Source: a phage
Sequence record: OZ346219.1
Strand: one strand, 5' to 3'
DNA: 64,000 nt
Shown here piece after piece: positions 22,760 to 45,187 of this stretch; the first letter of the stretch is position 1; each line of letters opens with the position of its first letter. A model generated the notes under the pieces. The model made no database searches. It saw only the letters and a program-made list of their open reading frames with translations, and had not been told where the DNA came from. The translations under genes and the position numbers were made by a program.

Positions 22760-23277
22760 TGACAGAAACTAAACCTATGTTAAAATTTGTTGTTCCTGTA
22801 AAAAAAATAGAAATAAACGGGAAACATATCAAGATCCCAAAAATGGGGATTAAGCAACATCGATTATTAAAAGATGTTCGTAGCTGTGATGAAACATTAA
22901 AGATTCTTCTTGATTCAATCTGTCCTGGGTTAAACGCTGCCGAGTCTGAATTGGTTATGCTTAACCTTTGTGCGTTTAATGGTAAGTGTCTGGAAGAAAA
23001 AGATGGTCTTAAGCTGTCTGATGTGTATATTTGTACAGAGACTGAATTTACTTTAAATGGTAAAGTCTTTAAATTTAAAAATCCAATGTATACTTCTGAC
23101 CCCATTATCGATGACGCTGATTTCTTGAGTCATCATTATCACGATCCTAGCGTAGACTTCCATGATTTCCCGGCTTTTATTATGGATTGGGCTACAGGAT
23201 TAAGAAAAACTATTGCACTGGATACACCGGAAGGTACTATCTATGGTGGAATTAACATATTGGATCGCCTATCATGA
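22759..23277 (+). CDS. 28: baseplate hub distal subunit gp28
   Basis: 172 aa; synteny. Confidence 0.75.
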   Translation: MTETKPMLKFVVPVKKIEINGKHIKIPKMGIKQHRLLKDVRSCDETLKILLDSICPGLNAAESELVMLNLCAFNGKCLEEKDGLKLSDVYICTETEFTLNGKVFKFKNPMYTSDPIIDDADFLSHHYHDPSVDFHDFPAFIMDWATGLRKTIALDTPEGTIYGGINILDRLS

Positions 23278-25007
23278 ATGACGCATTAACATCATTTCGC
23301 GGGATGCGCAAGGAAGCGGAAGAAAACCCGATTGATAAAATTAACAAATTAGATAAACTTGATTCTATTGATAATTTGCAAGCCGCTACCGAATTGGTGG
23401 CGGAGACAGTAGAACAAAAATCTAATGAAGTTGTTGGTGCGGTAGAGGATAACACCGCAGCCAATGAATTGACGGCAGAAAATACACAATCTACCGCTGG
23501 CAATACCCAAAAAACTTATGAAGAATTGCAAAAACTCAATAATTTCTCTTCTCAGATGAATGAGAAATTACGTGGTTTTGGTGTTATGATGGAACGTAGA
23601 TTTGGTGTTGTCAGTAAAATGGCTAGCGGTATTGGTGCGATTGAAGAAGCACTGAAAAAACCGGAACAACCGCAAACAATGCCATCACCTCAGCCAGTTT
23701 TGCCTACTGTACCGGAACAGCCTAATAATGACAACTATCAAGGTCTTCCAAAGAAAAAACCAGATGTTGATGACCGAAAGAAAAAGAACGCCACAGATAA
23801 GCGTAATGCCGATTCTATGGAAAATCTTCTTAAAGTTGTTCGTGGAGGATTTAAAGAAACCATAGGTATCTCTAATAAGGTCTTAGGGATGTTATTTAAG
23901 ATCACTTTGACCGCTATGGCAGAAGCCGCAAAATGGGGTGCTATTTTGATGGGTATTGTTTTTGTCATTGATACCCTGATGGTTCATTTCAGATATTGGA
24001 GCGATTTATTCGAGACAAAATTCAGTGAATTTATGGATAAGGCCGGAGATTGGGCTGGTCCTATTAGCGATATTTTAACTACTGTTCGTCAGGTTAGAGA
24101 TTATTGGTCTAAAGGAGAATATAAAGAATTAATTAAATCGCTGGTTATGGGTATTGGTGATGCATTCTATAAAACCTTTATCCAACTTGATCGAATTATC
24201 ACTACTGGTATTGCTAAAATTCTTCGCATGATCCCTGGTATGGGTGATTATGCCGATAATTTAGAATACGGTGCTTTAAAGTCTGCTGTTGCTAAAGGCT
24301 ATAAGCCAAATGACAGAGAACTCGAATTAATGGATAAGATCGAGTCTGAACACGAAGAAGACAAATATGGAGAGCGCACAGGATGGACAGGAAAAGCCCG
24401 TGATATTGGCGAAGCTATTGGGGATTCTATTAAGGATAAAGTTAACGAGGGTCTTGTTAGTCTGGGCTGGAGAGATCAAAAGGATGTTGACGCAGAGAAA
24501 CGACAAGAAGAATTAAAACGCGGGGAATACAAGTCTGTTTCTGCTGAACAACGATCTGCTAGTCGTAAACTTAAAATTAGAAGCGAGGGAGCGATCAATA
24601 ATATTAATGAAGTTATGGAGAATTTGAGCGGTGACTATGACAAAGAAAGAATGGAAGAGTTGAAAAAGGATATTGATGTTTACCGTGAGCAAGTTCAAGA
24701 TCCTACATTAGTTGAAAGTGATCGTTCTCAGTTAGAGCGTCTTATTGAAAAATTTGATGAGATGTATGCTGATAAAACTAAGGGTGTGGTTCCAACTAAT
24801 CCTGTTCCTGCAACTGAAACGGAAACAGCAAAACAAGCGGAACGTACTGAACAAATGCAGAAACAAGCTGCAATCCAGCAACAAACGACAAATCAGACCT
24901 CAAACGTAAATAATACACAAATTGTAACAAACAATAGAACTATTAAACAGGGTGCACCAACAACTAGAATTGATGCCCCCGGTACAATTAATATGGGGAA
25001 CTTTTAA
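23274..25007 (+). CDS. 29: baseplate hub / tail length determination protein gp29
   Basis: 577 aa; synteny; coiled-coil and Q/N-rich C-terminus. Confidence 0.8.
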   Translation: MNDALTSFRGMRKEAEENPIDKINKLDKLDSIDNLQAATELVAETVEQKSNEVVGAVEDNTAANELTAENTQSTAGNTQKTYEELQKLNNFSSQMNEKLRGFGVMMERRFGVVSKMASGIGAIEEALKKPEQPQTMPSPQPVLPTVPEQPNNDNYQGLPKKKPDVDDRKKKNATDKRNADSMENLLKVVRGGFKETIGISNKVLGMLFKITLTAMAEAAKWGAILMGIVFVIDTLMVHFRYWSDLFETKFSEFMDKAGDWAGPISDILTTVRQVRDYWSKGEYKELIKSLVMGIGDAFYKTFIQLDRIITTGIAKILRMIPGMGDYADNLEYGALKSAVAKGYKPNDRELELMDKIESEHEEDKYGERTGWTGKARDIGEAIGDSIKDKVNEGLVSLGWRDQKDVDAEKRQEELKRGEYKSVSAEQRSASRKLKIRSEGAINNINEVMENLSGDYDKERMEELKKDIDVYREQVQDPTLVESDRSQLERLIEKFDEMYADKTKGVVPTNPVPATETETAKQAERTEQMQKQAAIQQQTTNQTSNVNNTQIVTNNRTIKQGAPTTRIDAPGTINMGNF

Positions 25008-26065
25008 TGAAAATTAGTGTTATCAATGATGCCGTTGATAGCTTTAAAGCGGGGGTTAAAACCTCCGCTGGTTTTACCTCAAAAAATAAAGGGAAAACAT
25101 TAACCGCTCAATTCCCCGCTGAACGTGCTAGCGGTAATGATGCTAGCGGTTATTATATCAACGACTTATATAATAATGGTCTGTTATTCACTGCATACGA
25201 TTACACATCTCGTACTACTGGATCGTTGCGTGATTTCAGGAAAAAGAAAAATGTTGCTAGTGGTTTTGGTGGTAGCGTTAATATCGCTGGTTTTGATTTA
25301 AATTTGGGTGGGAGAAATGCTGCATTTGACCGAGAGGCAATTGCTAATATTCTTCTTCCTCGTAGTCAATCTGACGTTGACGCTGCTAGCCATAAGTTTA
25401 ATGATGTTGGTGAATCTGTTATTTCTCGCGGTGGTGGTACTTTAGGCGGTGCTCTTTCTAATATGGCATCTACTGCCGTTTTTGGTGGTATCGAAAGTAT
25501 TACTGGTGGATACCTTGCCGATCACGGTGAACAGATTTATAATACTGCGCGAAGCATGTATGCTGGTGCTGACGCACGAACTAAAAACTACGTATGGCAT
25601 CTAACCCCACGTAGTATTGAAGACCTTCGCAATATTCTGATCATATACGAAACGTTTTTAGAATTGTCTTATGGTTCTAGTGGTATTTCCAGCACCGCAA
25701 AAGAATTAAAAGCGGAAGTTGATGCGTGGTATAAAAATACACTATTGAGAAAATCCACCCCAGAGGAAGCGAAGAGAAATGATACTCTGTTTGAAGGGAT
25801 CACCGATTTTCTATCAAACGCAATTACTGTATCTAACCCGACAATATGGATGATCTCTAACTTTGGTAAGCGTACATCGTTTGAAGGGCGTAGCGATGCA
25901 TTTGGTCCCGCTCAGATCTCAAGTGTACGTCTGGACAAGTCGCCTGATGGTAAGTTTAATGGCCTTGCTATTTCTCCTAACTTGCCTAGTACATTTGTTC
26001 TGGAAGTATCATTTAGAGAGATCTTGACACTTTCCCGTGGTACTATATTTGGGAGTGCGGTATAA
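25007..26065 (+). CDS. 48: baseplate tail-tube junction protein gp48
   Basis: 352 aa; synteny 29/48/54. Confidence 0.8.
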   Translation: MKISVINDAVDSFKAGVKTSAGFTSKNKGKTLTAQFPAERASGNDASGYYINDLYNNGLLFTAYDYTSRTTGSLRDFRKKKNVASGFGGSVNIAGFDLNLGGRNAAFDREAIANILLPRSQSDVDAASHKFNDVGESVISRGGGTLGGALSNMASTAVFGGIESITGGYLADHGEQIYNTARSMYAGADARTKNYVWHLTPRSIEDLRNILIIYETFLELSYGSSGISSTAKELKAEVDAWYKNTLLRKSTPEEAKRNDTLFEGITDFLSNAITVSNPTIWMISNFGKRTSFEGRSDAFGPAQISSVRLDKSPDGKFNGLAISPNLPSTFVLEVSFREILTLSRGTIFGSAV

Positions 26066-26997
26066 TGTTTGATTTAAATGACTTTAACGAACAAGCCGCT
26101 AACCTTGACTTTCAGCGATCGAACTTATTCAGCGTGGCATTTGCCACCACTCCAAGTAATAAGACACAAGCGATCCTAGAAAGTATGGGAGGTGCGGTAT
26201 ATGATATTATACCAAATGCATTAAACGACTATTTCGGGATTACTCGTGGTGATTATACTGACGCATTAACAAATCTTGCTGTACAGGGTGTTAGGCGTGC
26301 TGTTGATTCATCTGGTGTCAAAAAGTATCTTTTAGGTGCAATGTCATCCCGCGTAGTTCAATCTCTTCTGGGGCAATTTGATGTTGGTACGTATGCGCTT
26401 GACTGGTTCAATATGGCATATAAGACAAGCGGTCTTCTGGTGTATGCTGTTAAGGTTCCAGAAAATAGATTGAATTATGAAATTGACCGTAACCACAATG
26501 CACCAAACATTCGAATTACCGGACGTGATTTTGATCCGCTTGTATTGAGCTTTAGAATGGACTCTAGCGCATCAAACTATAGAGCAATGCAGGATTGGGT
26601 TAACTCAGTAGAAGACCCCGTTACAGGGCTTCGTGCTCTTCCTGTTGACGTTGAAGCAGATATTCAGGTTAACTTACATAACCGAATGGGAGTTCCTCAC
26701 ACGATCATGATGTTTAATGGTTGTGTTCCTGTTGGTGTGAGTGCACCGGAATTAACCTATGAAAACAACAACGAAATTACAACATTCGATGTTACTTTCG
26801 CATATCGTTCTATGCAAACTGGTGCTGTCGGAGAGCAAGCCGCGCGAGAATGGATTGAGGATAAGGCAATAAACGCAATAACAAACACTTTCGGCAATAA
26901 TTTACTTGATAGTGGGTTATCTGCTGCTGGTAATGCTTTATCGCGTCTAAATGGCGTTGGTGGGCGTGTGGTGAATACTGTCACTAACTGGTTCTGA
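26065..26997 (+). CDS. 54: baseplate tail-tube initiator gp54
   Basis: 310 aa; synteny; tube-protein-like C-terminus. Confidence 0.8.
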   Translation: MFDLNDFNEQAANLDFQRSNLFSVAFATTPSNKTQAILESMGGAVYDIIPNALNDYFGITRGDYTDALTNLAVQGVRRAVDSSGVKKYLLGAMSSRVVQSLLGQFDVGTYALDWFNMAYKTSGLLVYAVKVPENRLNYEIDRNHNAPNIRITGRDFDPLVLSFRMDSSASNYRAMQDWVNSVEDPVTGLRALPVDVEADIQVNLHNRMGVPHTIMMFNGCVPVGVSAPELTYENNNEITTFDVTFAYRSMQTGAVGEQAAREWIEDKAINAITNTFGNNLLDSGLSAAGNALSRLNGVGGRVVNTVTNWF

Positions 26998-27006
26998 TAA
27001 GCGAAA

Positions 27007-27035
27007 GGCGGGGATTATCCCCCGCCTTTTTATTT
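27007..27035. terminator. bidirectional rho-independent terminator between convergent gene 54 and leftward operon
   Basis: ggcgggg attatc ccccgcc followed by TTTTTATTTT. Confidence 0.8.
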
Positions 27036-27515
27036 TGCTAAATCATTGCAATATTTTAGTGCCTTAGTTTGAAACTCTGCGCTGTTAAGTTCTTCATAAC
27101 GGTCATAATCACCGTTTAATGCTGCCTTTCTTGCTTCTTGCTCTATCTGCATGTCAGACATGATAATACAGCGATCCCGTGCTTTCATCTTCTCAAGTTG
27201 TATAGACTCTTCTTTCTGCTTGCGCAATTCTTCTTGACGCTTCTTTTCTTCTTGTGCTTTCTCTTCCCGCGCTTCTTTGATTGCATCCTTGAACATCTGC
27301 GTTTGTGGTGCTAAACCAACTTTAACCCGATCTACGTCTCGACGTTCCATTTTAGAAATAAAGCATGATTCGATCTGTTTATCACTTGCATATGATGCTT
27401 TACATTCACGAAGCAAGAAAACCGGATCTGATTTAGCATTCATCATAGCTTCCATGTTGGTACAACCAGTAAGCATGAATGCAGCCGCAAGACCAATCAG
27501 TTTAATCATTTTCAT
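27030..27515 (-). CDS. putative lipoprotein
   Basis: 161 aa; signal peptide with lipobox LTGC; charged coiled-coil region. Confidence 0.6.
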   Translation of the reverse strand: MKMIKLIGLAAAFMLTGCTNMEAMMNAKSDPVFLLRECKASYASDKQIESCFISKMERRDVDRVKVGLAPQTQMFKDAIKEAREEKAQEEKKRQEELRKQKEESIQLEKMKARDRCIIMSDMQIEQEARKAALNGDYDRYEELNSAEFQTKALKYCNDLAK

Positions 27516-28336
27516 TTAGTCACCTCACCGAAAATTGTAAATTGTCTACGATTCTCATCGCCGAAAGATTCTACTACGTCGTTTACCTTTACGCAAGTCC
27601 CGCGCGGTAAAATTACTTCACATTCGCAAGGATTCCATGCAATTGACCCAACAACAAAACCTTTATGATCTTTTACTTCAATTACCCATGATACATTACA
27701 AGAATGTTGCATCTTTCCGGTCATTGATTCATATCGATTCTCACAATAAAGGCTAGTGCTGTTTGATAGCCATCCTCCAAAGATGATTGGTGTCATGCTG
27801 GTTGACACAAAGTTTTTAAAGGTAAATTCCTTATCTTCAATAATACGCTCTATTGTCTGAATGTCAAGATGTTGACCGCGATAAAGAGTACAGTTTAACT
27901 TTTCGGTTTTATCCATGACACAATCCATCAAATCAACAATCTCTGATATCTCATTGGTCATGTCTTCTTCCCCTAAGAGAGCACCATTTACCCATTCGTA
28001 TTGTTCAGACACATAATCACAGATTGCATTATATTCTGCTGGGGTTATGTTGTTATGTTTGTAATGTTTGAATACATTATCTCCAAAGTCTTCGGAGTGT
28101 ACTTCATACATCACATTAATGATTTTCTTGACAAATCCATAATCTTGTGTCTCTCGCTCAAGGAAGCGGATAACCTTCACATAATCATCAAAGTTAATCT
28201 GATCGCTGATCATCTCAGTGATCATGTAGCCATTAATCCCCTCAATGTCATATGTTTCGATGTAATTATCCATACGTTCCATCATTGATTCGCGTGATTC
28301 TTCTGAAAGACGAAAATCCTGTAATTGTTTGAACAT
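27512..28336 (-). CDS. ADP-ribosyltransferase, short Alt/Mod-like paralog
   Basis: 274 aa; R-S-ExE motifs (LYRGQ, VSTSMTP, ECEVILPRG) shared with adjacent alt. Confidence 0.75.
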   Translation of the reverse strand: MFKQLQDFRLSEESRESMMERMDNYIETYDIEGINGYMITEMISDQINFDDYVKVIRFLERETQDYGFVKKIINVMYEVHSEDFGDNVFKHYKHNNITPAEYNAICDYVSEQYEWVNGALLGEEDMTNEISEIVDLMDCVMDKTEKLNCTLYRGQHLDIQTIERIIEDKEFTFKNFVSTSMTPIIFGGWLSNSTSLYCENRYESMTGKMQHSCNVSWVIEVKDHKGFVVGSIAWNPCECEVILPRGTCVKVNDVVESFGDENRRQFTIFGEVTK

Positions 28337-28414
28337 TTTAAACCTCCCATATAACAGAAAACGGGGCTAGTATAAAACTAGTCCCCGTTTGAGTCAACCA
28401 TTATTTCTTAAAAA

Positions 28415-30466
28415 TTACATTTTAAATTTATCCGGCATTGCGTCTACAGATACCAGATCAGCGATAAGCTGACGTAGAGTTGCCTTATCTGCTTTCTTAC
28501 GTTCGGTTTTAGCTTCGCTAATGAAGCTGGAGAAAGACAGGTCAGAAGCAGGTTTAACAACACCTTCACGGATGAATGCATCACCGTCCGCGATCATCTC
28601 GCCAGATTCTTGTAATGCTGCCAGTTCATTTTTGTTCATAATATGTGCCTCAATGTAATAAGTTTCTTGTGAATCCGTCGATGCAGTAGCACGAGTTACC
28701 GTATCAAAGGATAACACAACACCGCGAGGAAGTAAAATCTCGCATTCTTTGTAAGCAAATGCTTTGTTACCTACTGGCAAGACAGGGATGTTTTCCGCGC
28801 CAGCAATGGAGAAAGCAACATTAGCGCCACCTTCACCGCGAGAGCCAGCCATAGAATCAACACCAGCAACGGCACTAGCCACGTTTGCATTCCAGCCGCC
28901 AAAAATGTTAGGTGCAAGGGAAGTGCTCACATAGTTTTTAAAGTAAAACGCTTTTTGCTTACGTGCAGTTTCCCACATTTGCGACCGGAAGTCCATACCA
29001 CGATACAGAATAGTACCAGGATCAAGTTTAACGCCATAGTTAGAGAAGGCATTATCCAGTGCATCGCACATCTTGACCAGTTCTTCTGGATCTGCGATTC
29101 CTTCAAACTCTTCCAGCTTACGGTCGGTTAGGAAGTTGTTCATGTTGATGTATGCTGCATCGGCATATTCGCTCAACACAAAACCTTCCGCGCCCGGCAG
29201 ATCAAGATCAATATCTGCCATCATTTCACCCATGTTGCTAGCAATTGCTTCAAACATACCGGAAGCAACATTACGTAGGGCATCGGTTTTAATCTGGGTG
29301 ATATGACTACGCAGCATTTCAGCTTTTACATCTGCTGGCATAGACTGGTCTACTCGATCCATTGCCAGAGCGGTGATCTTGTTTTCGAATACTTCCTCGC
29401 TCATGATTTCTTTTAAGCGTTTGATTGATGCTGCGATAACTTCCGCAGACAACGGATCATATTGATCCTGAACTTTTACCAGTTCGCTTACTGCGTATTT
29501 TGCATCGGCTTCGCTTTCAAAAATAGTACGCATGAAACCATAGCGAGTGATAATATCACTTGTCCAGTCATTCAGAGAACGAGCGGTTGAACGTTCTAAT
29601 GCTTGACGATCAATCAGAGTATTAAACTGTTTCTTAGGTTCGGCTTCGGTGATATCTTCTTCTGGTTTAAGATTAATTTTTTCTGGATGATTCACGTAGT
29701 CGCTGTTATATGTCGCTTGAGTTTTCAGCATTTCTTCTTTAGTCAAACGAGATTTAGCCGCTACGCGTTGTTCTGCTTCCGCGTTTCGTTCTTCTTCTGA
29801 CACAAGACTAGCCGCATATGCCTCATCTTTAGTCAGAGATTCACCCGTAGCCTTAGATACCCAGCGATCACCTAAATCACTTTCTACTTTAGTGAACAAG
29901 GATTCATCAAGTTTAATACCTTTAATCTTATCAATCGCCATCCCGCGACGCTTGACAACAACTAAAGCGATCTTTTTGCTGGTCATTACTTCCTGCTGGA
30001 ATACTTCAAACTTCGGTGTACGACGCACCAAACGCTCTATAACGCGCTTAACCAGTTCGGTCTTACCTTTCATGCGGGATACGTTAAAACGGAACATAAC
30101 AGCGTCTAATTGCGCTTTACGGGCTGTTTCCATAACCACATCAAAAGCACTTGCCATAACTGCAATCGGGTTATCGCCTAGACCATTTTTAAGCTGTACA
30201 ATACGACCGCTTTTGTTCATTTCGCACAGTACAACATGTGCGGTCTTGTCACCCATACGAATGATTTTAGGTGTTTTGTTGGTGAAGTTACAAAGACGGA
30301 CAATCACATCTTTATCGCGTGTCTGTACTGCAAAAAGCTGTTTAGGATTCTGCTTAGGCTTTAAGCACTGTACCGGAGCAATACTACCAAAGTTTTCTTC
30401 CTCTTCCGTCAACAGCCATTTCTCGAAAGATTCAATCATTAGATCGTCGATTTCTAAGTTAAACAT
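28415..30466 (-). CDS. alt: Alt ADP-ribosyltransferase (head-packaged)
   Basis: 683 aa; LFTKVES.LGD, ILYRGMD, FYFKNYVSTSLAPNIFGGW, ECEILLPRG as in T4 Alt. Confidence 0.88.
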   Translation of the reverse strand: MFNLEIDDLMIESFEKWLLTEEEENFGSIAPVQCLKPKQNPKQLFAVQTRDKDVIVRLCNFTNKTPKIIRMGDKTAHVVLCEMNKSGRIVQLKNGLGDNPIAVMASAFDVVMETARKAQLDAVMFRFNVSRMKGKTELVKRVIERLVRRTPKFEVFQQEVMTSKKIALVVVKRRGMAIDKIKGIKLDESLFTKVESDLGDRWVSKATGESLTKDEAYAASLVSEEERNAEAEQRVAAKSRLTKEEMLKTQATYNSDYVNHPEKINLKPEEDITEAEPKKQFNTLIDRQALERSTARSLNDWTSDIITRYGFMRTIFESEADAKYAVSELVKVQDQYDPLSAEVIAASIKRLKEIMSEEVFENKITALAMDRVDQSMPADVKAEMLRSHITQIKTDALRNVASGMFEAIASNMGEMMADIDLDLPGAEGFVLSEYADAAYINMNNFLTDRKLEEFEGIADPEELVKMCDALDNAFSNYGVKLDPGTILYRGMDFRSQMWETARKQKAFYFKNYVSTSLAPNIFGGWNANVASAVAGVDSMAGSRGEGGANVAFSIAGAENIPVLPVGNKAFAYKECEILLPRGVVLSFDTVTRATASTDSQETYYIEAHIMNKNELAALQESGEMIADGDAFIREGVVKPASDLSFSSFISEAKTERKKADKATLRQLIADLVSVDAMPDKFKM

Positions 30467-30505
30467 TTTATATCCTCTAGTTGATAACCTATAAACCTAT
30501 ATTTA

Positions 30506-30528
30506 TGAAAAAGGGGCTTAACGCCCCC
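30506..30528 (-). terminator. rho-independent terminator (leftward)
   Basis: A-run + ggggc ttaac gcccc on + strand. Confidence 0.55.
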
Positions 30529-30533
30529 ATTTA

Positions 30534-30746
30534 TTATAATGCACCATCGAGCAATTGCTCTAAGGTGTATCCTGAATAGTCTTTTTCAATCAGGATATAT
30601 TTTCCTACTCGTTTAATACAACCGCGCATTTCAACGTATTCTGCGTAGTTGATGGTACGAGTTGTTCCATCTTCCAGTAATGCAGTACCGATTTCGTTAA
30701 TGCGGTCATAAGTTACGTCGGTAATGATGATTTCGATGTTAGCCAT
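30534..30746 (-). CDS. hypothetical protein (70 aa)
   Basis: ORF with promoter cassette upstream. Confidence 0.5.
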   Translation of the reverse strand: MANIEIIITDVTYDRINEIGTALLEDGTTRTINYAEYVEMRGCIKRVGKYILIEKDYSGYTLEQLLDGAL

Positions 30747-30782: not shown

Positions 30783-30811
30783 ATTATGATATACACCATC
30801 TGTTATGTCAA
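30783..30811 (-). promoter_or_regulatory. sigma70-like early promoter cassette with stem-loop (PeSL-like)
   Basis: on - strand TTGACA-N17-CATAAT; 37 nt upstream of ORF start. Confidence 0.6.
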
Positions 30812-30817
30812 CAACTT

Positions 30818-30997
30818 TTAGAACATTTTTGAAATTAATTCTGCTTTGATTTCGCAGAGAACATCTAAAGATTTCTCGTCACCCGCTTTTGCTGCTTCTG
30901 CTTGCATTTTTGAAATGGCTTCAATGTCAGTGCAATTATAAGCCGCTTGAACTTTAGCGATTGCGATGATTGCCGATTCGATGGTTAAGTGTTTCAT
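30818..30997 (-). CDS. small hypothetical protein (59 aa)
   Basis: RBS ggaga in conserved leader; below track size cut-off. Confidence 0.4.
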   Translation of the reverse strand: MKHLTIESAIIAIAKVQAAYNCTDIEAISKMQAEAAKAGDEKSLDVLCEIKAELISKMF

Positions 30998-31029: not shown

Positions 31030-31059
31030 ATTATGGGGGATCACCGATCCCCCTGTCAA
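31030..31059 (-). promoter_or_regulatory. sigma70-like early promoter cassette with stem-loop (PeSL-like)
   Basis: TTGACA-N18-CATAAT on - strand; stem-loop gggggatcaccgatccccc. Confidence 0.6.
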
Positions 31060-31066
31060 CAATTTT

Positions 31067-31585
31067 TTAGTTATTTTTTAATTGCTCATCTTGCAATAGG
31101 GCAATCACATGCTGGCGATGTTCTTCCGATTGAGGCACACCGAAAAAGTTTGTTTTGTAGAAATACTCTAATCGGTCTTCTCGTGTGCTCTCTTCCATCA
31201 TGATCGCGGGTAGTCCGAGATTTCGGAAACGTCGCTTTTCTGCTGGCGTAAAATCACTGTAATACAACATAGAATCATCATTACCAGCAATGCTAAACTC
31301 ATCCTTCATAAAGGAGAATATTGCGTTTAAACGCTGTTTACCGTCCACGATTTCGATCTCATAGCGAGAGCCATCATCAATCTTAGCCATTGCGATAGCA
31401 CCAACCGGAAAATCATTAATAAGGTTTTCGATAAACATACGTTTGTTTTCGGTGTCCCATACTAAAGGACGCTGATAATCTGGGTTCATGCTGATATAGC
31501 CATCTTCTAACCATGCATCATAAACAGAGATGACAAAGTTTTTAGTATTGGTATAGTAACGGCGTTTAGGCGTTAAACGGTTCAT
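31067..31585 (-). CDS. DUF262 / ParB-like domain protein (stand-alone)
   Basis: start at MNRLTPKRR (RBS aggaga); motifs DYQRPLVW and IVDGKQRLNAI typical of DUF262/ParB N-terminal domain. Confidence 0.6.
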   Translation of the reverse strand: MNRLTPKRRYYTNTKNFVISVYDAWLEDGYISMNPDYQRPLVWDTENKRMFIENLINDFPVGAIAMAKIDDGSRYEIEIVDGKQRLNAIFSFMKDEFSIAGNDDSMLYYSDFTPAEKRRFRNLGLPAIMMEESTREDRLEYFYKTNFFGVPQSEEHRQHVIALLQDEQLKNN

Positions 31586-31586
31586 G

Positions 31587-31919
31587 TTATAGTCTCCTGA
31601 ATGGATCATCACGTAAATCAATATCTTTTAAGAACTCATCCCATGAATGCCGGATATTGTTCTTAATTCTCCAGATAAGCGCAGGGATTGAACGCTCTCC
31701 CATCTGGAAGTAGGGATCATATGATCCGTATGCCCAATATGCTACTACAATTCCACAATCAGCGCAATAGTATTCTATTTCACTGGCTGGCGACCAAAGT
31801 CCATCAATATGATCGGTGATCTTGCTTTCGATGTTATGGCTATGACAATCAGGGCAACGGATGCAATGACCTTGTTTATCGTAATTTGACGTTAGCGAAT
31901 ACTTAAACAATCTCATCAT
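31587..31919 (-). CDS. zinc-finger protein (CxxC...CxxC)
   Basis: 110 aa; CIRCPDCHSH ... CADCG. Confidence 0.5.
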   Translation of the reverse strand: MMRLFKYSLTSNYDKQGHCIRCPDCHSHNIESKITDHIDGLWSPASEIEYYCADCGIVVAYWAYGSYDPYFQMGERSIPALIWRIKNNIRHSWDEFLKDIDLRDDPFRRL

Positions 31920-32632
31920 AGATCCTTATTTGCTTCAAATACTGCCTTTGCGAATCCTCGCGGGGTAAGTGACCTGATAGTCTTTGTTTTCGTTCCTTTC
32001 CCGCCTAGCTTAGAATGCTGTTTACTGTACCCTTTATTAATCTGCAACGGTTTCTTTTCTGGCATTATAAAGCCTTGTCCGGTCCATAAGCAAGTCTTTT
32101 TCGGGTACATATCACGGGCGGCGATATACTCAGGAAAAGTAGGATGTTTATCATCTTCCGGCAAATAACCGCCATATTCCCACGGGTGGAACATGTAATC
32201 AGGCTTACGCCACATGCTAGAGATAACGCTTACAGGATTCTCTATCATGTAGGGAACTCCTAGCCATTCACCCAAATAAGCGGTTATTTTAGCTGCCCTT
32301 ACATCATGAACTTGAATCAATGGTCCTTGTTCTCGTTTCTTTCGTTCAAAGTGTGCAGCGCCACTAACAGCTAAATTGGTGCACGGTGGGAATGCAAAGA
32401 TAATATCCGGTTTCCCCCATTCAAGGTCCATTGCTCTTTCCAGCCAGTTCAAATCAATCCAGGTGTTTACATAGGTAATGTTTGGATGTTCAAATCTGGT
32501 ATTATACTTTTTGTATGTGCCGTGGTCGCCATCATCAGCATTAAAGCAGATCACCTTATGACCTGCTTTAGCCCATTCTAGCCCCATTATCCCCGATCCG
32601 TCAAAGTTACAGAATATTAATTTTTGTTTCAT
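31916..32632 (-). CDS. C5-methyltransferase-like protein (putative)
   Basis: 238 aa; FCNFDGSG (motif I-like), FAFPPCTNLAVSGA (PC motif IV-like), YMIENPV (ENV motif VI-like). Confidence 0.5.
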   Translation of the reverse strand: MKQKLIFCNFDGSGIMGLEWAKAGHKVICFNADDGDHGTYKKYNTRFEHPNITYVNTWIDLNWLERAMDLEWGKPDIIFAFPPCTNLAVSGAAHFERKKREQGPLIQVHDVRAAKITAYLGEWLGVPYMIENPVSVISSMWRKPDYMFHPWEYGGYLPEDDKHPTFPEYIAARDMYPKKTCLWTGQGFIMPEKKPLQINKGYSKQHSKLGGKGTKTKTIRSLTPRGFAKAVFEANKDL

Positions 32633-42119: not shown

Positions 42120-42323
42120 TTAACCGTATACGCGAAAGTATTCTACTGATCCGTCGCTATACTGTTTTACATTGAATGTATTCACGCCATGATCATTGCT
42201 CATAATGACATACACACTGCGACGCTCATCACTAAACGGGTTAACTGGTGCTGGTTCAATTTCAACATTAAAACCACGTTTAGCAAGTGCTTCGCCTAAT
42301 TTCTTGAGTTTATCGGTAAACAT
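42120..42323 (-). CDS. hypothetical protein (67 aa)
   Basis: ORF only. Confidence 0.45.
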   Translation of the reverse strand: MFTDKLKKLGEALAKRGFNVEIEPAPVNPFSDERRSVYVIMSNDHGVNTFNVKQYSDGSVEYFRVYG

Positions 42324-43222
42324 TAAAAGTCTCCGTAGTTAACCTGAAAACATTCTACACCAATTGAGCGATACATGTCAACCACTTGATCACGGTCATC
42401 TACCGCCAAAACAACATGATAACGCGGTGCAATTTCAGAGAAGAAGATCTCTTTCTTCACTTCATGATCAGGACGACGATCATTAGTTTCACGTTGAAAG
42501 TGATCACTCGGTTCAATACCCTGTTCACGCAACCATTGCAGAGTATCTTCTTCGCAAACATCCTCACGCCCTGAGCATGTAATGATACGATAACCATTAT
42601 CACGATACAGTTTAAGCATTTCGACCACTTGCGGACGAGGTTTATCTTCTTTGACCTTTGTCCAGTCAAACGGATGACGACCGCCCTTATCCGCTAATGT
42701 CCCATCAATATCAAAGATCACTGCCTTTGGCAGCATGGTATTCGGTTTGTATACTTCTTGACCCATATATTCCTGCATCAGATAAAATTGGTTGCGCAAA
42801 TGAGAAAGTGGAATTGCTTTCTCACCGCGATAGAAATTACGTTTCTTTAGTGTCTCAAATGATTCATTGAACACTTGTTCAGTATACACCGCGTTAAATT
42901 CTTTTGCAAGTTCTTTGTAGAATACACGATGTTTTTCTTTCAGGTTGGTATCAGAGATAATGATACTTAATCCGCGTGATAGAGTCTCACGAGCAATCAT
43001 TCTCTGAATAGACTCTACCAGCTTTTCTTTTTCCTTAGTATACTTGTATTTCAAATGTGAGTCAACACCAAACAACATAAGACGAAGATCATCACGATTC
43101 ACATTACGATAATTACTAAACCGTTTACATGTTTCCATCGCCCATGTAGTTTTACCGGACCCAGAACAACCAACGGTTAAAATCACTTCACATTTCGGCA
43201 TTATTTCTCCTTCGGTTTGCAC
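42323..43222 (-). CDS. pseT: polynucleotide kinase / 3'-phosphatase PseT
   Basis: 299 aa; P-loop GCSGSGKTTWA; HAD motif AVIFDIDGTLA; RIGVECFQV as in T4 PseT. Confidence 0.92.
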   Translation of the reverse strand: MQTEGEIMPKCEVILTVGCSGSGKTTWAMETCKRFSNYRNVNRDDLRLMLFGVDSHLKYKYTKEKEKLVESIQRMIARETLSRGLSIIISDTNLKEKHRVFYKELAKEFNAVYTEQVFNESFETLKKRNFYRGEKAIPLSHLRNQFYLMQEYMGQEVYKPNTMLPKAVIFDIDGTLADKGGRHPFDWTKVKEDKPRPQVVEMLKLYRDNGYRIITCSGREDVCEEDTLQWLREQGIEPSDHFQRETNDRRPDHEVKKEIFFSEIAPRYHVVLAVDDRDQVVDMYRSIGVECFQVNYGDF

Positions 43223-43533
43223 CGTTCCTCATTAAGTTCTTTTCGATAATAACACATGATCAACTTACTTTCAAGTGTATATCTCTTAATATCCGCAAGC
43301 CAGACTCTGAATTTTTGGGAGTCCTCCCACGACATAGAAACTCTAGGTTTACCGTCTATTGTATCCACTTTCAGGTCAATGTCAACTTTTTCTATTGGTG
43401 CTGGTAGTGGAGGATGTAATTTCGGTTCCTGTGAATAATGGTCCATTGTACACGAAGAAAGCGCAAATACAATAGGCAAAGCGAAGACATGGATTATGGA
43501 GGTCTGAAAATTCTTATGTGCTTTCTTAAACAT
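43201..43533 (-). CDS. putative o-spanin (outer-membrane lipoprotein)
   Basis: start set at internal MFKKAHKNF; lipobox LSSC; Pro-rich PKLHPPLPAP; track ORF extends to 43653. Confidence 0.5.
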   Translation of the reverse strand: MFKKAHKNFQTSIIHVFALPIVFALSSCTMDHYSQEPKLHPPLPAPIEKVDIDLKVDTIDGKPRVSMSWEDSQKFRVWLADIKRYTLESKLIMCYYRKELNEERCKPKEK

Positions 43534-43649
43534 CCAGTGTATCACGAAAATTGAAAACACCATCAGGATAATAATGCTTGCACCTATCCACAGATAATCA
43601 ACCAGATTAAAATTGCTTATCTGCTCTTGTGTAGGCAATATTTCTATGC

Positions 43650-43973
43650 TCATTTAGTAGCCTCCTTTAATTCTTCGGTAAACTCCTTAAATGAATCATT
43701 AAGCTGTTTCTCTACCAACTTTGGTTTTTGTGCTACTACATAGCCTCGTGTAGCGTCTTTCATTGCTTTGTTTTGTTCTTCCGCAAACTTAGTTCTTATT
43801 CCATACATCTCCTTTTGTAGTGAGTCTACGACCTTCATCTTTTCATCGGTCTTTTTCTTATACTCTGTAAATTCCTGATTCAGTCGATCTACCTCCTTTT
43901 TATTTTCCCACCACATATTACCACCTACCCCTAGCAACACAGAGATGATAACAATGTATATCAGCTTTGACAT
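43650..43973 (-). CDS. putative i-spanin
   Basis: start set at MSKLIYIVIISVLLGVGG (N-terminal TMD) then coiled-coil; position of T4 pseT.3. Confidence 0.5.
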   Translation of the reverse strand: MSKLIYIVIISVLLGVGGNMWWENKKEVDRLNQEFTEYKKKTDEKMKVVDSLQKEMYGIRTKFAEEQNKAMKDATRGYVVAQKPKLVEKQLNDSFKEFTEELKEATK

Positions 43974-43988
43974 ATTACCCCCAACGAC

Positions 43989-44011
43989 AAAAGGCGGGGA
44001 ACTAGCCCCGC
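43989..44011 (-). terminator. rho-independent terminator (leftward) after rnlA
   Basis: A-run + ggcgggg aactag ccccgc. Confidence 0.55.
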
Positions 44012-44017
44012 TTATTA

Positions 44018-45187
44018 TTACCAATCAATCTTATCAGCCGGAATAAGTTTCTTATAATTCCGTAGATAGTAAGTTTTCATTGAATCCAGAATACGGTCAT
44101 AATCAAGACCATCAAATGCAATCATCAGACACATGAAAATATATGCTTGTGCATCACCATGTTTACGTGATTCGATAGTCGCATTTGATGCATATGTCTT
44201 TCTGTCTTCTCCCGCGTGTGCGTTATAAAATTCTGTTGCTGTCGTGAAGGCATTGCGAAGAATAGACCTGAATGCTTCCTCGAATAGCTCGATTCGTTCC
44301 AGTGCTTCCGGTTCGCCTTCATATGCAGCACGCAAATCATCGGTTTCGCTTTCTACGACATAGTAGATCAGGTTATTAGGAAACATCGATGTGTTTTTAA
44401 TGTTATGCACACCAATATACCATTCACTCTTCACTTTGAACATTTGACCGTCTTTAGTGCGTGCAACAATTCCTTCGATACCTTCTGCGGTCCGAACTTC
44501 ATCAAGAATATTGCTAAAACGCGCTGAATCAACCTGTAACGCATTTACCAGATGAGGACGTAGGATTGCGTCAGAAAATAGCATTTGATGCGGTACGTAC
44601 TCTCCTGTGACGTTATGGCGTACATTCAGAAGTGTTAGCGACGGTTCAGAATATTCTACAACAATTCGGTTGCTGGGCGCTGTATATTCAAAGTTGAAAG
44701 TATAATCAGACCCAATATCAGCAATCTTAGCGCGTAGATCCGCATACTTCTCTGAATACAGAAGACCGTTTGCTCTCTCTGCCTGGCTTGAGTACAAGGC
44801 CGCTTTAGACTTCAACTGAACATAGCCGTTATCAATGTAGGTGCTTACTAGACTACCGTCCATTTTGTCCATGACCATTTCCACATCTTCCGGCTTAAAG
44901 CGAGCGCGATCATTCTCACCCAAATTAAAAAACTTCTCCATAGGACGAGATGCAATGCGGACAGGTCGGTCTTTATCATCGATTTCAAACATGATCCCGC
45001 GACACTCTAACGCATCTGGTTTATTCCACATTTCCGGTTTGCTCAAGTACAGATAACTAAAAATGCGCATACGGGTTTGCATCGCCGTAATTTCATCTTT
45101 GTAATAGAACGTATCAGATCCGTCACATAGTGCCATCAGATTTTTGAACAATGCTAAAACTTTTTTGTTGTTTTCTTTTGTTGACAT
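44018..45187 (-). CDS. rnlA: RNA ligase 1 (RnlA, gp63)
   Basis: 389 aa; ALECRGIMFE, PVRIASRPMEKFFNL, nucleotidyltransferase KMDGSLV, NFE..AP.NRIV as in T4 RnlA. Confidence 0.92.
   Translation of the reverse strand: MSTKENNKKVLALFKNLMALCDGSDTFYYKDEITAMQTRMRIFSYLYLSKPEMWNKPDALECRGIMFEIDDKDRPVRIASRPMEKFFNLGENDRARFKPEDVEMVMDKMDGSLVSTYIDNGYVQLKSKAALYSSQAERANGLLYSEKYADLRAKIADIGSDYTFNFEYTAPSNRIVVEYSEPSLTLLNVRHNVTGEYVPHQMLFSDAILRPHLVNALQVDSARFSNILDEVRTAEGIEGIVARTKDGQMFKVKSEWYIGVHNIKNTSMFPNNLIYYVVESETDDLRAAYEGEPEALERIELFEEAFRSILRNAFTTATEFYNAHAGEDRKTYASNATIESRKHGDAQAYIFMCLMIAFDGLDYDRILDSMKTYYLRNYKKLIPADKIDW

Follow-up and report, generated by a model that had tools for sequence, protein, structure and literature searches.

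Deeply diverged lipoprotein alleles beside tandem ADP-ribosyltransferase genes in Krischvirus, with a predicted late alt gene and a predicted early ART2-lipoprotein unit

The phage sequence OZ346219.1 was analysed over a window of 64,000 nucleotides (nt), in which three adjacent minus-strand genes code for a 683-amino-acid (aa) ADP-ribosyltransferase (ART) of the Alt type, a second ART of 274 aa (ART2) and a 161-aa predicted lipoprotein. The main result concerns the lipoprotein gene, which occurs as deeply diverged alleles in closely related phages and is read as a set of old allele lineages swapped by recombination. The explanation favoured here combines these exchanged alleles with a late Alt, an early unit made of ART2 and the lipoprotein, and a role of the latter as a conflict factor in the periplasm; taken as a whole, it is given even chances. 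The finding as a whole is an ordinary one, in which the lipoprotein polymorphism represents a modest lead.

Positions 27000..30500 were used as megablast query against phages. The search returned 59 phage records, all belonging to the genus Krischvirus and covering the query at 95-99% identity, with phages kvi and FL37 as top matches (98.6%). The window is that of a Krischvirus, an RB49-like T4-type coliphage. Annotations of the related records W115, GEC-3S, TB34, G37-3 and RB49 were used for comparison. The three genes are equivalent to RB49 alt (RB49p184), RB49p183 and RB49p182, respectively. The RB49 record describes RB49p183 as 'similar to C-terminal part of T4 Alt protein', its RefSeq name is ADP-ribosyltransferase, and the counterpart of RB49p182 is labelled 'putative lipoprotein' in one record (W115). 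RB49ORF183c was reported as a paralogous duplication of the adjacent alt and grouped with alt.-1 and alt.-2 of T4 (Nolan 2006, PMC1524935). With the RefSeq annotation and the paralogy published in 2006, the tandem ARTs are already known. An earlier note on this DNA had placed three open reading frames (ORFs) here and had quoted their catalytic motifs and an LTGC lipobox, and the ORF list and translations agree with it on each of these points.

28415..30466, minus strand: Alt orthologue, 683 aa, predicted Arg-type mono-ADP-ribosyltransferase with N-terminal domain and C-terminal tail as in T4 Alt (phrog_802, PF03496, T4 Alt alignment)
27512..28336, minus strand: ART2, 274 aa, predicted Alt/VIP2-family catalytic domain (PF03496, E 7e-17; phrog_15144, E 9e-196)
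27030..27515, minus strand: predicted lipoprotein, 161 aa, starting with MKMIKLIGLAAAFMLTGC; lipobox LTGC, Cys18 codon at 27464..27462, Thr at +2
27040..27485, minus strand: allele-replacement cassette, i.e. the part coding for the mature lipoprotein; DNA identity to G37-3 is 13-50% inside and 97-100% outside, recovering at the terminator

A tblastn search of the lipoprotein against phages yielded 59 records, of which 51 carry allele A, 6 allele B and 2 allele C. Allele A is 94-98% identical to the lipoprotein of the window. Allele B (in G37-3, E26, PHB13, AV108, 011D4 and PTE-Eco09) shares 29-30% identity with it and allele C (in JK32 and Whisky) about 29%, and identity between the alleles B and C is 49%. 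The proteins encoded around the lipoprotein gene present a different picture, as illustrated by one phage for each of the two divergent alleles.

G37-3 (allele B), protein identity to the window: Alt 100%, ART2 99%, gp54 99%, gp48 100%; lipoprotein 36%, mature lipoprotein 30%
JK32 (allele C), protein identity to the window: Alt 100%, ART2 97%, gp54 86%, gp48 77%; lipoprotein 32%, mature lipoprotein 29%

The type of signal peptide is shuffled between the alleles. In G37-3 and JK32 (L003 4501..5013 and L004 4501..5013, respectively) it reads MK[MI]IKLIGLAALVAMLNGC, with Asn at position -2 of the lipobox. Whisky bears the allele-A signal peptide in front of an allele-C mature part, indicating that the gene is a mosaic between these two parts. 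The alleles found within the genus are as distant as those of lineages in which ART2 is 46-47% identical, and the allele of the metagenome contig L011 (41%) is nearer to the window than allele B. In comparison with the Hadza-gut contig L014, the synonymous divergence (dS) was 0.29 for ART2 and 1.06 for the lipoprotein, the latter with a ratio of nonsynonymous to synonymous divergence (dN/dS) of 0.10, and dS reached 0.74-2.14 in the baseplate genes. Among five near-identical allele-A phages, the corresponding ratio for polymorphisms (pN/pS) was 0.28 in the lipoprotein gene versus 0.02-0.04 in the neighbouring genes. These data are read as old allele lineages that have been swapped by recombination, each of them probably functional, in a protein that appears less constrained than its neighbours. 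In-situ hypermutation was considered as a source of the diversity and rejected, given the sharp edges, alleles as distant as those of other lineages and a dN/dS of 0.10 within a lineage. According to the mechanism proposed here, at least three deeply diverged alleles would be exchanged exactly at the edges of the part coding for the mature protein, each under purifying selection. Deep alleles in phages that are locally 97-100% identical are a pattern typical of loci of phage-phage or phage-host conflict. No earlier description of this polymorphism was found.

The adjacent baseplate block includes gene 29 (23274..25007, plus strand; also in L003, L004 and L014), the product of which is the most variable baseplate protein of Krischvirus (55-98% identity). 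No other gene of the block reaches its dN/dS of 0.18, and gp5 is at least 99% identical.

The lipoprotein gene follows directly a gene for a 271-282-aa PF03496 protein, or the ExE-bearing C-terminus of one, wherever the upstream gene is visible. The contexts compared were those of the 59 isolates, the Hadza-gut contigs L014 and L015 and the metagenome contigs L008, L009, L010, L011 and L016. Both genes either overlap by 4-8 nt or are separated by 1-12 nt, and the pair converges on gene 54. In the window, the stop codon of ART2 and the start codon of the lipoprotein gene overlap by 4 nt (ATGA), and a GAGGT Shine-Dalgarno sequence is located inside the 3' end of ART2. ART2 and the lipoprotein form a conserved pair, and the lipoprotein is fixed in the genus. 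The slot is occupied differently in Tevenvirinae, where it contains a second or decayed alt of full length together with alt.-3/DUF5498 (T4, T2 and Moonvirus). The lipoprotein was also considered as the counterpart of T4 alt.-3, which has the equivalent position; alt.-3 is not a lipoprotein, and this candidate was discarded.

The minus-strand gene block extends from about 59.7 kb down to 27.0 kb and is interrupted by several promoters and terminators. The genes alt, ART2 and lipoprotein are located at its promoter-distal (3') end and converge on the plus-strand late genes 29, 48 and 54 (23274..26997), for which the Pfam assignments are T4_Tape_measure, T4_tail_cap and gp19-like. The earlier note had put the three genes at the start of the leftward operon, which is the wrong end of the block, and had treated them as one shared operon. 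The latter view does not fit either, as alt is preceded by a terminator of its own and by a late-type CATAAATA box, and ART2 and the lipoprotein gene form a separate unit. There are two transcription units here, alt alone and ART2 with the lipoprotein gene, delimited by the following elements.

30512..30528, minus strand: stem-loop and U-tract terminator closing the upstream early unit, GGGGGCGTTAAGCCCC then TTTTTC; RNA fold -12.2 kcal/mol, z -2.4
30500..30507, minus strand: late-promoter-like box CATAAATA, 34 nt upstream of the alt ATG; 7/8 match to the T4-type TATAAATA, weak positional evidence
28359..28397, minus strand: PeSL-type element; -35 TTGACT (28397..28392), 17-nt spacer, -10 TATACT (28374..28369)
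27003..27030, both strands: bidirectional stem-loop terminator with an 11-bp GC-rich stem; -19.2 kcal/mol (minus), -20.4 kcal/mol (plus)

The terminator at 30512..30528 is also annotated in GEC-3S, TB34 and G37-3. Scanning the window for exact TATAAATA boxes revealed none before alt and none within the ART2-lipoprotein unit; the exact boxes present in the window precede late plus-strand genes. PeSLs have been described in RB49 and phi1 as cassettes combining a strong sigma-70-like promoter with a stem-loop terminator (Arbiol et al. 2010, PMC2839356), and both promoter and terminator activity were measured for other PeSLs (PMC2839356). In the element at 28359..28397, the TTGACT-17-TATACT arrangement obtained a promoter-scan score of 10/12. 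Its hairpin, a 13-bp stem-loop (28390..28359), overlaps the spacer and is followed by UUUUCUGUU (-20.6 kcal/mol, z -4.8). The element is annotated as promoter in GEC-3S and as terminator in TB34. It is near-identical in four relatives (L016, L011, L008 and L014), three of which have ARTs of 46-62% identity, and two compensatory base-pair changes were detected. The terminator at 27003..27030 is common to the leftward ART2-lipoprotein unit and the rightward late genes 29-48-54. GEC-3S annotates it on both strands, and an equivalent hairpin is located 3' of the lipoprotein gene in all relatives compared. T4 alt is expressed late, and the ModA and ModB proteins of T4 are early (PMC9697503). The terminator and the CATAAATA box before alt, the conserved PeSL before ART2, the lack of a late box in the second unit and the timing known from T4 together suggest that Alt is late and packaged and that ART2 and the lipoprotein are expressed early as a two-gene unit. 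The second unit, with boundaries deduced from the sequence, would consist of the PeSL, the gene of the 274-aa ART, the overlapping lipoprotein gene and the bidirectional terminator.

Sequence analysis of the 161-aa protein revealed an N-terminus (MKMIKLIGLAAAFM-LTG-C18) which passes a rule of the PROSITE PS51257 type, i.e. a basic N-terminus, an uncharged hydrophobic stretch and a lipobox Cys within residues 15-35. G17 and C18 are invariant in an alignment of 15 diverse family members. The lipobox noticed earlier (LTGC in the window's protein) is retained in all members aligned, and the gene lies directly downstream of the short ART, as had been stated. The residue at +2 after the lipobox Cys is Thr, Ala or Ser and never Asp; following the sorting rule of E. 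coli, anchoring in the outer membrane is predicted. By these rules, the protein is likely to be a lipoprotein that leaves the cytoplasm, receives its lipid at Cys18 and ends up at the inner face of the outer membrane. Four Cys residues (38, 51, 116 and 156) are invariant in the family, the last two being exactly 39 residues apart in 14 of the 15 members. Family members share a length of 155-175 aa, an R/K-D motif (D60), G67 and G135. A central segment of 39-53 residues is 41-62% charged across the family and corresponds in the window to a helix of 48 residues with 54% charged residues. The AlphaFold (AF2) model is all helix with a pLDDT of 85.6, and its pTM of 0.51 makes the tertiary model uncertain. 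The mature part may be pictured as a helical protein stapled by disulfides, in which one helix is long and highly charged.

The lipoprotein belongs to phrog_16112, for which the function is unknown, and has no relative beyond its own family in Pfam, PADLOC, PDB or BFVD. Scans of 15 family members for weak Pfam and PADLOC matches revealed no consistent hit either. The family amounts to 41 clusters at 90% identity among 5.8 billion proteins and, by profile search, to 10 representatives at 50% identity among 1.84 billion proteins. A search of the literature gave nothing specific on Krischvirus lipoproteins, RB49 virion proteomics or exclusion lipoproteins in Straboviridae. A reading of the lipoprotein as a spanin was rejected, as the canonical pair sits beside pseT, the gene upstream of the lipoprotein gene codes for an ART, and the lipoprotein has no C-terminal transmembrane domain (TMD).

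That T4-type spanin pair (43201..44024, minus strand) is located beside the polynucleotide kinase gene pseT (42323..43222). It is made of a 124-aa i-spanin with N-terminal TMD and coiled coil, which overlaps a proline-rich o-spanin with the lipobox ALSSC. A third candidate lipoprotein of the genus is encoded outside the window, by a 66-aa ORF at 72833..73033 (minus strand) of OZ035808.1 in which a good lipobox (MKKMIAIALLASAC...) was identified.

Searches of a complete Krischvirus genome by tblastn and phmmer did not reveal any homologue of T4 Sp, Imm or Imm.1. A tblastn match of Sp with an E-value of 0.049 lies inside gene 41 and was considered as spurious. The comparison of Imm.1 with the lipoprotein by hhalign gave a probability of 4.5%, the Imm.1 family being too narrow for a profile. 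That the genus offers no other candidate is weak evidence for an exclusion function of the lipoprotein. In the proposed mechanism, the lipoprotein would counter incoming phages from the periplasm early in infection, through superinfection exclusion or in another conflict at the envelope. It may in this way fill the role which Imm and Spackle play in T4 and for which no homologues are detectable in the genus. Such an exclusion or envelope role, which the earlier note had put forward as a candidate function, is plausible but unproven, and exclusion specifically is held as a possibility on the lesser side of even. A broader proposal is rather doubtful; it holds that the lipoprotein founds a new family of helical, disulfide-stapled proteins anchored in the outer membrane, acting in RB49-like phages as a polymorphic, allele-specific exclusion determinant for discrimination of kin or rivals that replaces Imm/Spackle and is always co-expressed with the short ART from a conserved early unit of two genes. 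In T4, Imm.1 (L021 8119..8499, beside imm) has the lipobox LAGC, followed in the mature part by four Cys, broadly like the Krischvirus lipoprotein, and its family is almost invariant.

The 683-aa protein is, on the evidence of its full-length collinearity with T4 Alt and the same position beside gene 54, a full-length Alt orthologue. It aligns collinearly with T4 Alt over residues 31-681 (27% identity, E 2e-61) and matches phrog_802 'Alt-like' over residues 16-683 (E 7e-180) and PF03496 with 37.3 bits (E 2e-9, gathering cut-off 23.4). The C-terminal tail ends with MPxKF and is conserved as in T4 Alt, and the gene adjoins genes 54/48/29, as in T4. The catalytic motifs are LYR489G, S514-T-S516 and E574-C-E576-ILLPRG. 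In formal alignments, this R-S-ExE triad is in register with T4 Alt, with the Alt copies of T2 and with metagenomic relatives, as the earlier note had assumed. Alt is most likely expressed from a T4-type late promoter, packed in the head and injected with the DNA, after which it would mono-ADP-ribosylate arginines of host proteins; both packaging and targets are extrapolated from T4.

ART2 displays the corresponding motifs LYR153G, S178-T-S180 and E238-C-E240-VILPRG and matches PF03496 with 61.9 bits (gathering cut-off 23.4). An alignment including relatives down to 22-28% identity showed that Y152-R153-G154, S178-T179-S180, E238, E240 and L243-P244-R245 are invariant. The YRG and ExE motifs line up with SpvB 2gwl in HMMER. 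The AF2 model (pLDDT 81.5, pTM 0.81) matched more than 120 PDB chains of ARTs at E<=1e-3 in Foldseek. The top hits were Certhrax, C3bot2 and Vis, which together with CDTa and iota Ia were found at E-values around 1e-10 with target TM scores up to 0.67. A helical region of about 140 aa at the N-terminus is longer than in C3-like and binary-toxin ARTs, and the loop that follows the STS motif (FGGW..NSTSLYCENRY) is peculiar to the family and of low model confidence. In the R-S-ExE enzyme class, an ExE motif is established as a sign of arginine specificity. Pfam scores above cut-off, the triad invariant in alignments, strong purifying selection (dN/dS 0.02-0.06) and, for ART2, the modelled ART fold support the assignment of both proteins to the R-S-ExE mono-ARTs, which had already been made from the motifs. 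The earlier remark that the short paralogue lacks the long N-terminal region of Alt is correct, since ART2 matches phrog_802 only at positions 330-602 and therefore does not qualify as a full-length Alt. Alignments place the missing part at the N-terminal ~340 aa of Alt and show that the conserved C-terminal tail, which had gone unremarked, is missing as well.

A neighbour-joining tree of catalytic domains places the short ARTs in their own clade, at distances of 0.70-0.83 from the Krischvirus-type Alt, from T4 Alt/T2 Alt1 and from T2 Alt2. With a clade equidistant from all Alt groups, ART2 is to be regarded as an old paralogue. As far as sequences tell, it is an ancient member of the Alt/VIP2 branch, and neither a recent copy of its neighbour nor a truncated second copy of the T2 type. 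Its identity is 27-32% to the catalytic domains of Alt and 13-17% to T4 ModA and ModB. RB49 has a separate modB orthologue between srd and gene 56, and the orthologue was found in the complete Krischvirus genome (tblastn E 1e-7, phmmer E 1e-9), in which the same two programs gave no match to ModA. By homology, the genus is assigned three ARTs, namely Alt, ART2 and ModB. Of the proposal that ART2 is a non-packaged, Mod-like enzyme, the first half agrees with the sigma-70-type promoter and its stem-loop, which suit an early, non-packaged prediction. The kinship with Mod is contradicted by the 13-17% identity and by the separate modB at the srd-mod-56 position, so ART2 is not the Mod counterpart, and 'Mod-like' is valid just as an analogy of predicted timing. 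Early, non-packaged expression of ART2 is a reasonable prediction from its sequence context. The enzyme would be made inside the infected cell, as a third ART beside Alt and the ModB orthologue, and may modify arginines of one or several host proteins.

Two other readings of ART2 were weighed. T4 carries alt.-1 and alt.-2, which its record describes as a deleted and frame-shifted second alt copy, and RB49ORF183c has been grouped with them (PMC1524935). ART2 could by analogy be a functionless, decaying remnant. Yet its frame is intact in all 59 Krischvirus genomes, the catalytic residues are invariant down to relatives of 41-47% identity, dN/dS is 0.03-0.06 (0.06 against a gut-metagenome relative; pN/pS among close relatives is 0.03), the ART fold is confidently predicted and the clade is its own and old, which makes decay extremely improbable. 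Given the invariant triad, the fold and the strong purifying selection, ART2 is predicted to be an active mono-ART. ART2 might alternatively be a virion protein too; late transcripts starting at the alt promoter would extend into its gene, and it would enter the head along with Alt, two ARTs being injected as a result. It is located immediately downstream of alt on the same strand, two full-length Alt copies occur in tandem in T2 and Moonvirus, its N-terminus MFKQLQDFRLSE contains an L-x-E as in T4 prohead protease sites, and the relative L010 has no PeSL between the two genes. On the other side, ART2 is devoid of the N-terminal ~340 aa and C-terminal tail common to all Alts, a stable U-tract hairpin separates it from alt, it has its own conserved sigma-70 promoter, and its N-terminus is not conserved among relatives. 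Packaging of ART2 is considered improbable on this balance, and an early ART2 in one unit with the lipoprotein gene is retained.

No co-variation of the lipoprotein allele was observed with ART2, gp54, gp48 or gp29, and allele-specific contact with ART2, gp54 and gp48 is excluded by their near-identity beside lipoproteins of 30% identity. This bears on the reading that ART2 and the lipoprotein are functionally coupled, one needing or controlling the other. In its favour, their adjacency is kept in every relative examined down to ~25-30% lipoprotein identity, and the slot is never without a family member, even with recombination breakpoints between the two genes. The reading is quite improbable, however, as ARTs of 97-99% identity occur with lipoproteins ~30% identical to each other, the ART is cytoplasmic and the lipoprotein exported, and there is no precedent. 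A further reading is that the lipoprotein masks the phage's own outer-membrane receptor, keeps out phages that use this receptor and spares the progeny from adsorption to debris, as Llp of T5 and Cor of phi80/T1 do. A predicted early outer-membrane lipoprotein of a virulent phage would suit this role, discrete alleles could match different receptors, and T5 Llp is a precedent. But the allele does not track the distal tip of gp37, no sequence or fold similarity to annotated PHROG or PDB entries was found, and the all-helical protein with its charged helix is about twice the size of Llp or Cor. Receptor masking is of small probability and less likely than an early conflict role in the periplasm. 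The lipoprotein could also have an envelope role other than exclusion, in lysis timing or inhibition, protection of the infected envelope or anti-defence against a periplasmic system of host or prophage, with the diversity reflecting that of host strains. No link to any phage entry protein was found, and deep alleles under purifying selection suit variable host factors as well as rival phages. It is not a spanin (the canonical pair is at 44024..43201, and a C-terminal TMD is missing), and the predicted early expression is ill-suited to lysis, while nothing argues directly against anti-defence. This reading is judged somewhat unlikely.

Several observations weigh against the favoured explanation of a late Alt, an early ART2-lipoprotein unit and a periplasmic conflict factor. 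As to timing, the late box of alt is just a 7/8 match, the PeSL is missing in L010, the PeSL hairpin doubles as a terminator, and late read-through from alt may reach ART2. No Krischvirus expression, virion-proteome or enzymatic data were found in the searchable literature. As to the lipoprotein, G37-3 and JK32 have an atypical LNGC lipobox, its tertiary model is the uncertain one mentioned above, and no homology or fold match to a known exclusion protein was detected in PHROG, PADLOC, Pfam or PDB. The allele does not co-vary with the gp37 tip: in the C-terminal region of gp37, AV108 and PHB13 (allele B) share 94% and 91% identity with RB49 (allele A), and most allele-A phages 72-88%. Moreover, gp5 is at least 99% identical in 58 records, which include all allele-B and allele-C phages. 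With the gp37 tip not tracked and gp5 constant, neither simple masking of the own receptor nor a race of the Spackle type with the own gp5 accounts for the diversity.

In Krischvirus, the C-terminal 400 aa of gp37 (L013 8718..11657, RB49) are 72-100% identical among ~30 records, and several other records fall below this listed range, their tips being more divergent or replaced. No gp38-type adhesin is annotated in Krischvirus.

Upstream of alt, further elements of the minus strand were noticed. Two small ORFans, of 59 aa (30997..30818) and 70 aa (30746..30534), are each located behind a PeSL-type promoter.

31059..31030 and 30811..30783, minus strand: additional pair of PeSL-type promoters; TTGACA and CATAAT 17-18 nt apart, GC hairpin inside the spacer

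At 31067..31621 (minus strand), a 184-aa protein corresponds to only the N-terminal DUF262/GmrSD_N domain of type IV restriction enzymes (PF03235, E 8e-20). Two genes away, at 31916..32632 (minus strand), a 238-aa protein is a DNA methyltransferase according to related records. The two might represent an anti-restriction or decoy pairing.

RB49-like phages thus have Alt, a short Alt paralogue and ModB in place of Alt, ModA and ModB of T4, and ART2 offers a clean starting point in the search for a further host protein targeted by phage ADP-ribosylation. The lipoprotein represents an uncharacterised family without Pfam entry that is fixed in the genus and worth a bench experiment. Krischviruses are used in therapeutic cocktails, and an allele-specific exclusion factor, if true, would matter for combining phages.

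The Krischvirus Alt resembles T4 Alt in length, collinearity, R-STS-ExE triad, C-terminal tail and in position and orientation beside gene 54. It differs in being just 27% identical and in its late box, which is CATAAATA and not TATAAATA. Like ModA and ModB of T4, ART2 is a small stand-alone R-S-ExE enzyme that is predicted to be early inside the cell; in contrast to a Mod orthologue, it is 13-17% identical with just the ExE region aligning, in phages that have their own modB. With the second alt copy of T2 and Moonvirus and with T4 alt.-1/alt.-2, it shares the nature of an Alt-family paralogue directly downstream of alt. The second alt of T2 and Moonvirus is full length (686-707 aa), whereas ART2 has 274 aa and neither the N-terminal domain nor the C-terminal tail. 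T2 Alt2 is no closer to ART2 than other Alts are (0.73 vs 0.74-0.80), and ART2 has its own promoter. Fold and catalytic triad of the ART2 model are those of the PF03496 toxins C3bot, iota Ia, CDTa, Certhrax, Vis and SpvB, although sequence identity of the C3-like and binary-toxin ARTs to ART2 is 14-20%.

The arrangement before the predicted early accessory unit is the same as in the PeSL cassettes of RB49/phi1, with a sigma-70-like promoter and a stem-loop terminator, identified here from sequence alone. The allele exchange, however, is not edged by PeSLs, its breakpoints being the part coding for the signal peptide and the downstream terminator. Spackle of T4 is an early periplasmic helical-bundle protein with a disulfide, and its homologues are highly conserved (PMC7677548). 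Early expression, a periplasmic location, a helical structure and Cys stapling are predicted for the Krischvirus lipoprotein too, in a genus without detectable sp and imm; the lipoprotein has no sequence or fold relation to Spackle or Imm and is lipid-anchored, twice as long and polymorphic. Llp of T5, Cor of phi80/T1 and Ltp of the Streptococcus phage TP-J34 are phage lipoproteins which act on the envelope against incoming phage, Ltp being helical and blocking injection. The Krischvirus protein is predicted to be a phage-encoded lipoprotein like them, but differs in size and architecture, and no homology to any annotated PHROG or PDB entry was detected for it.

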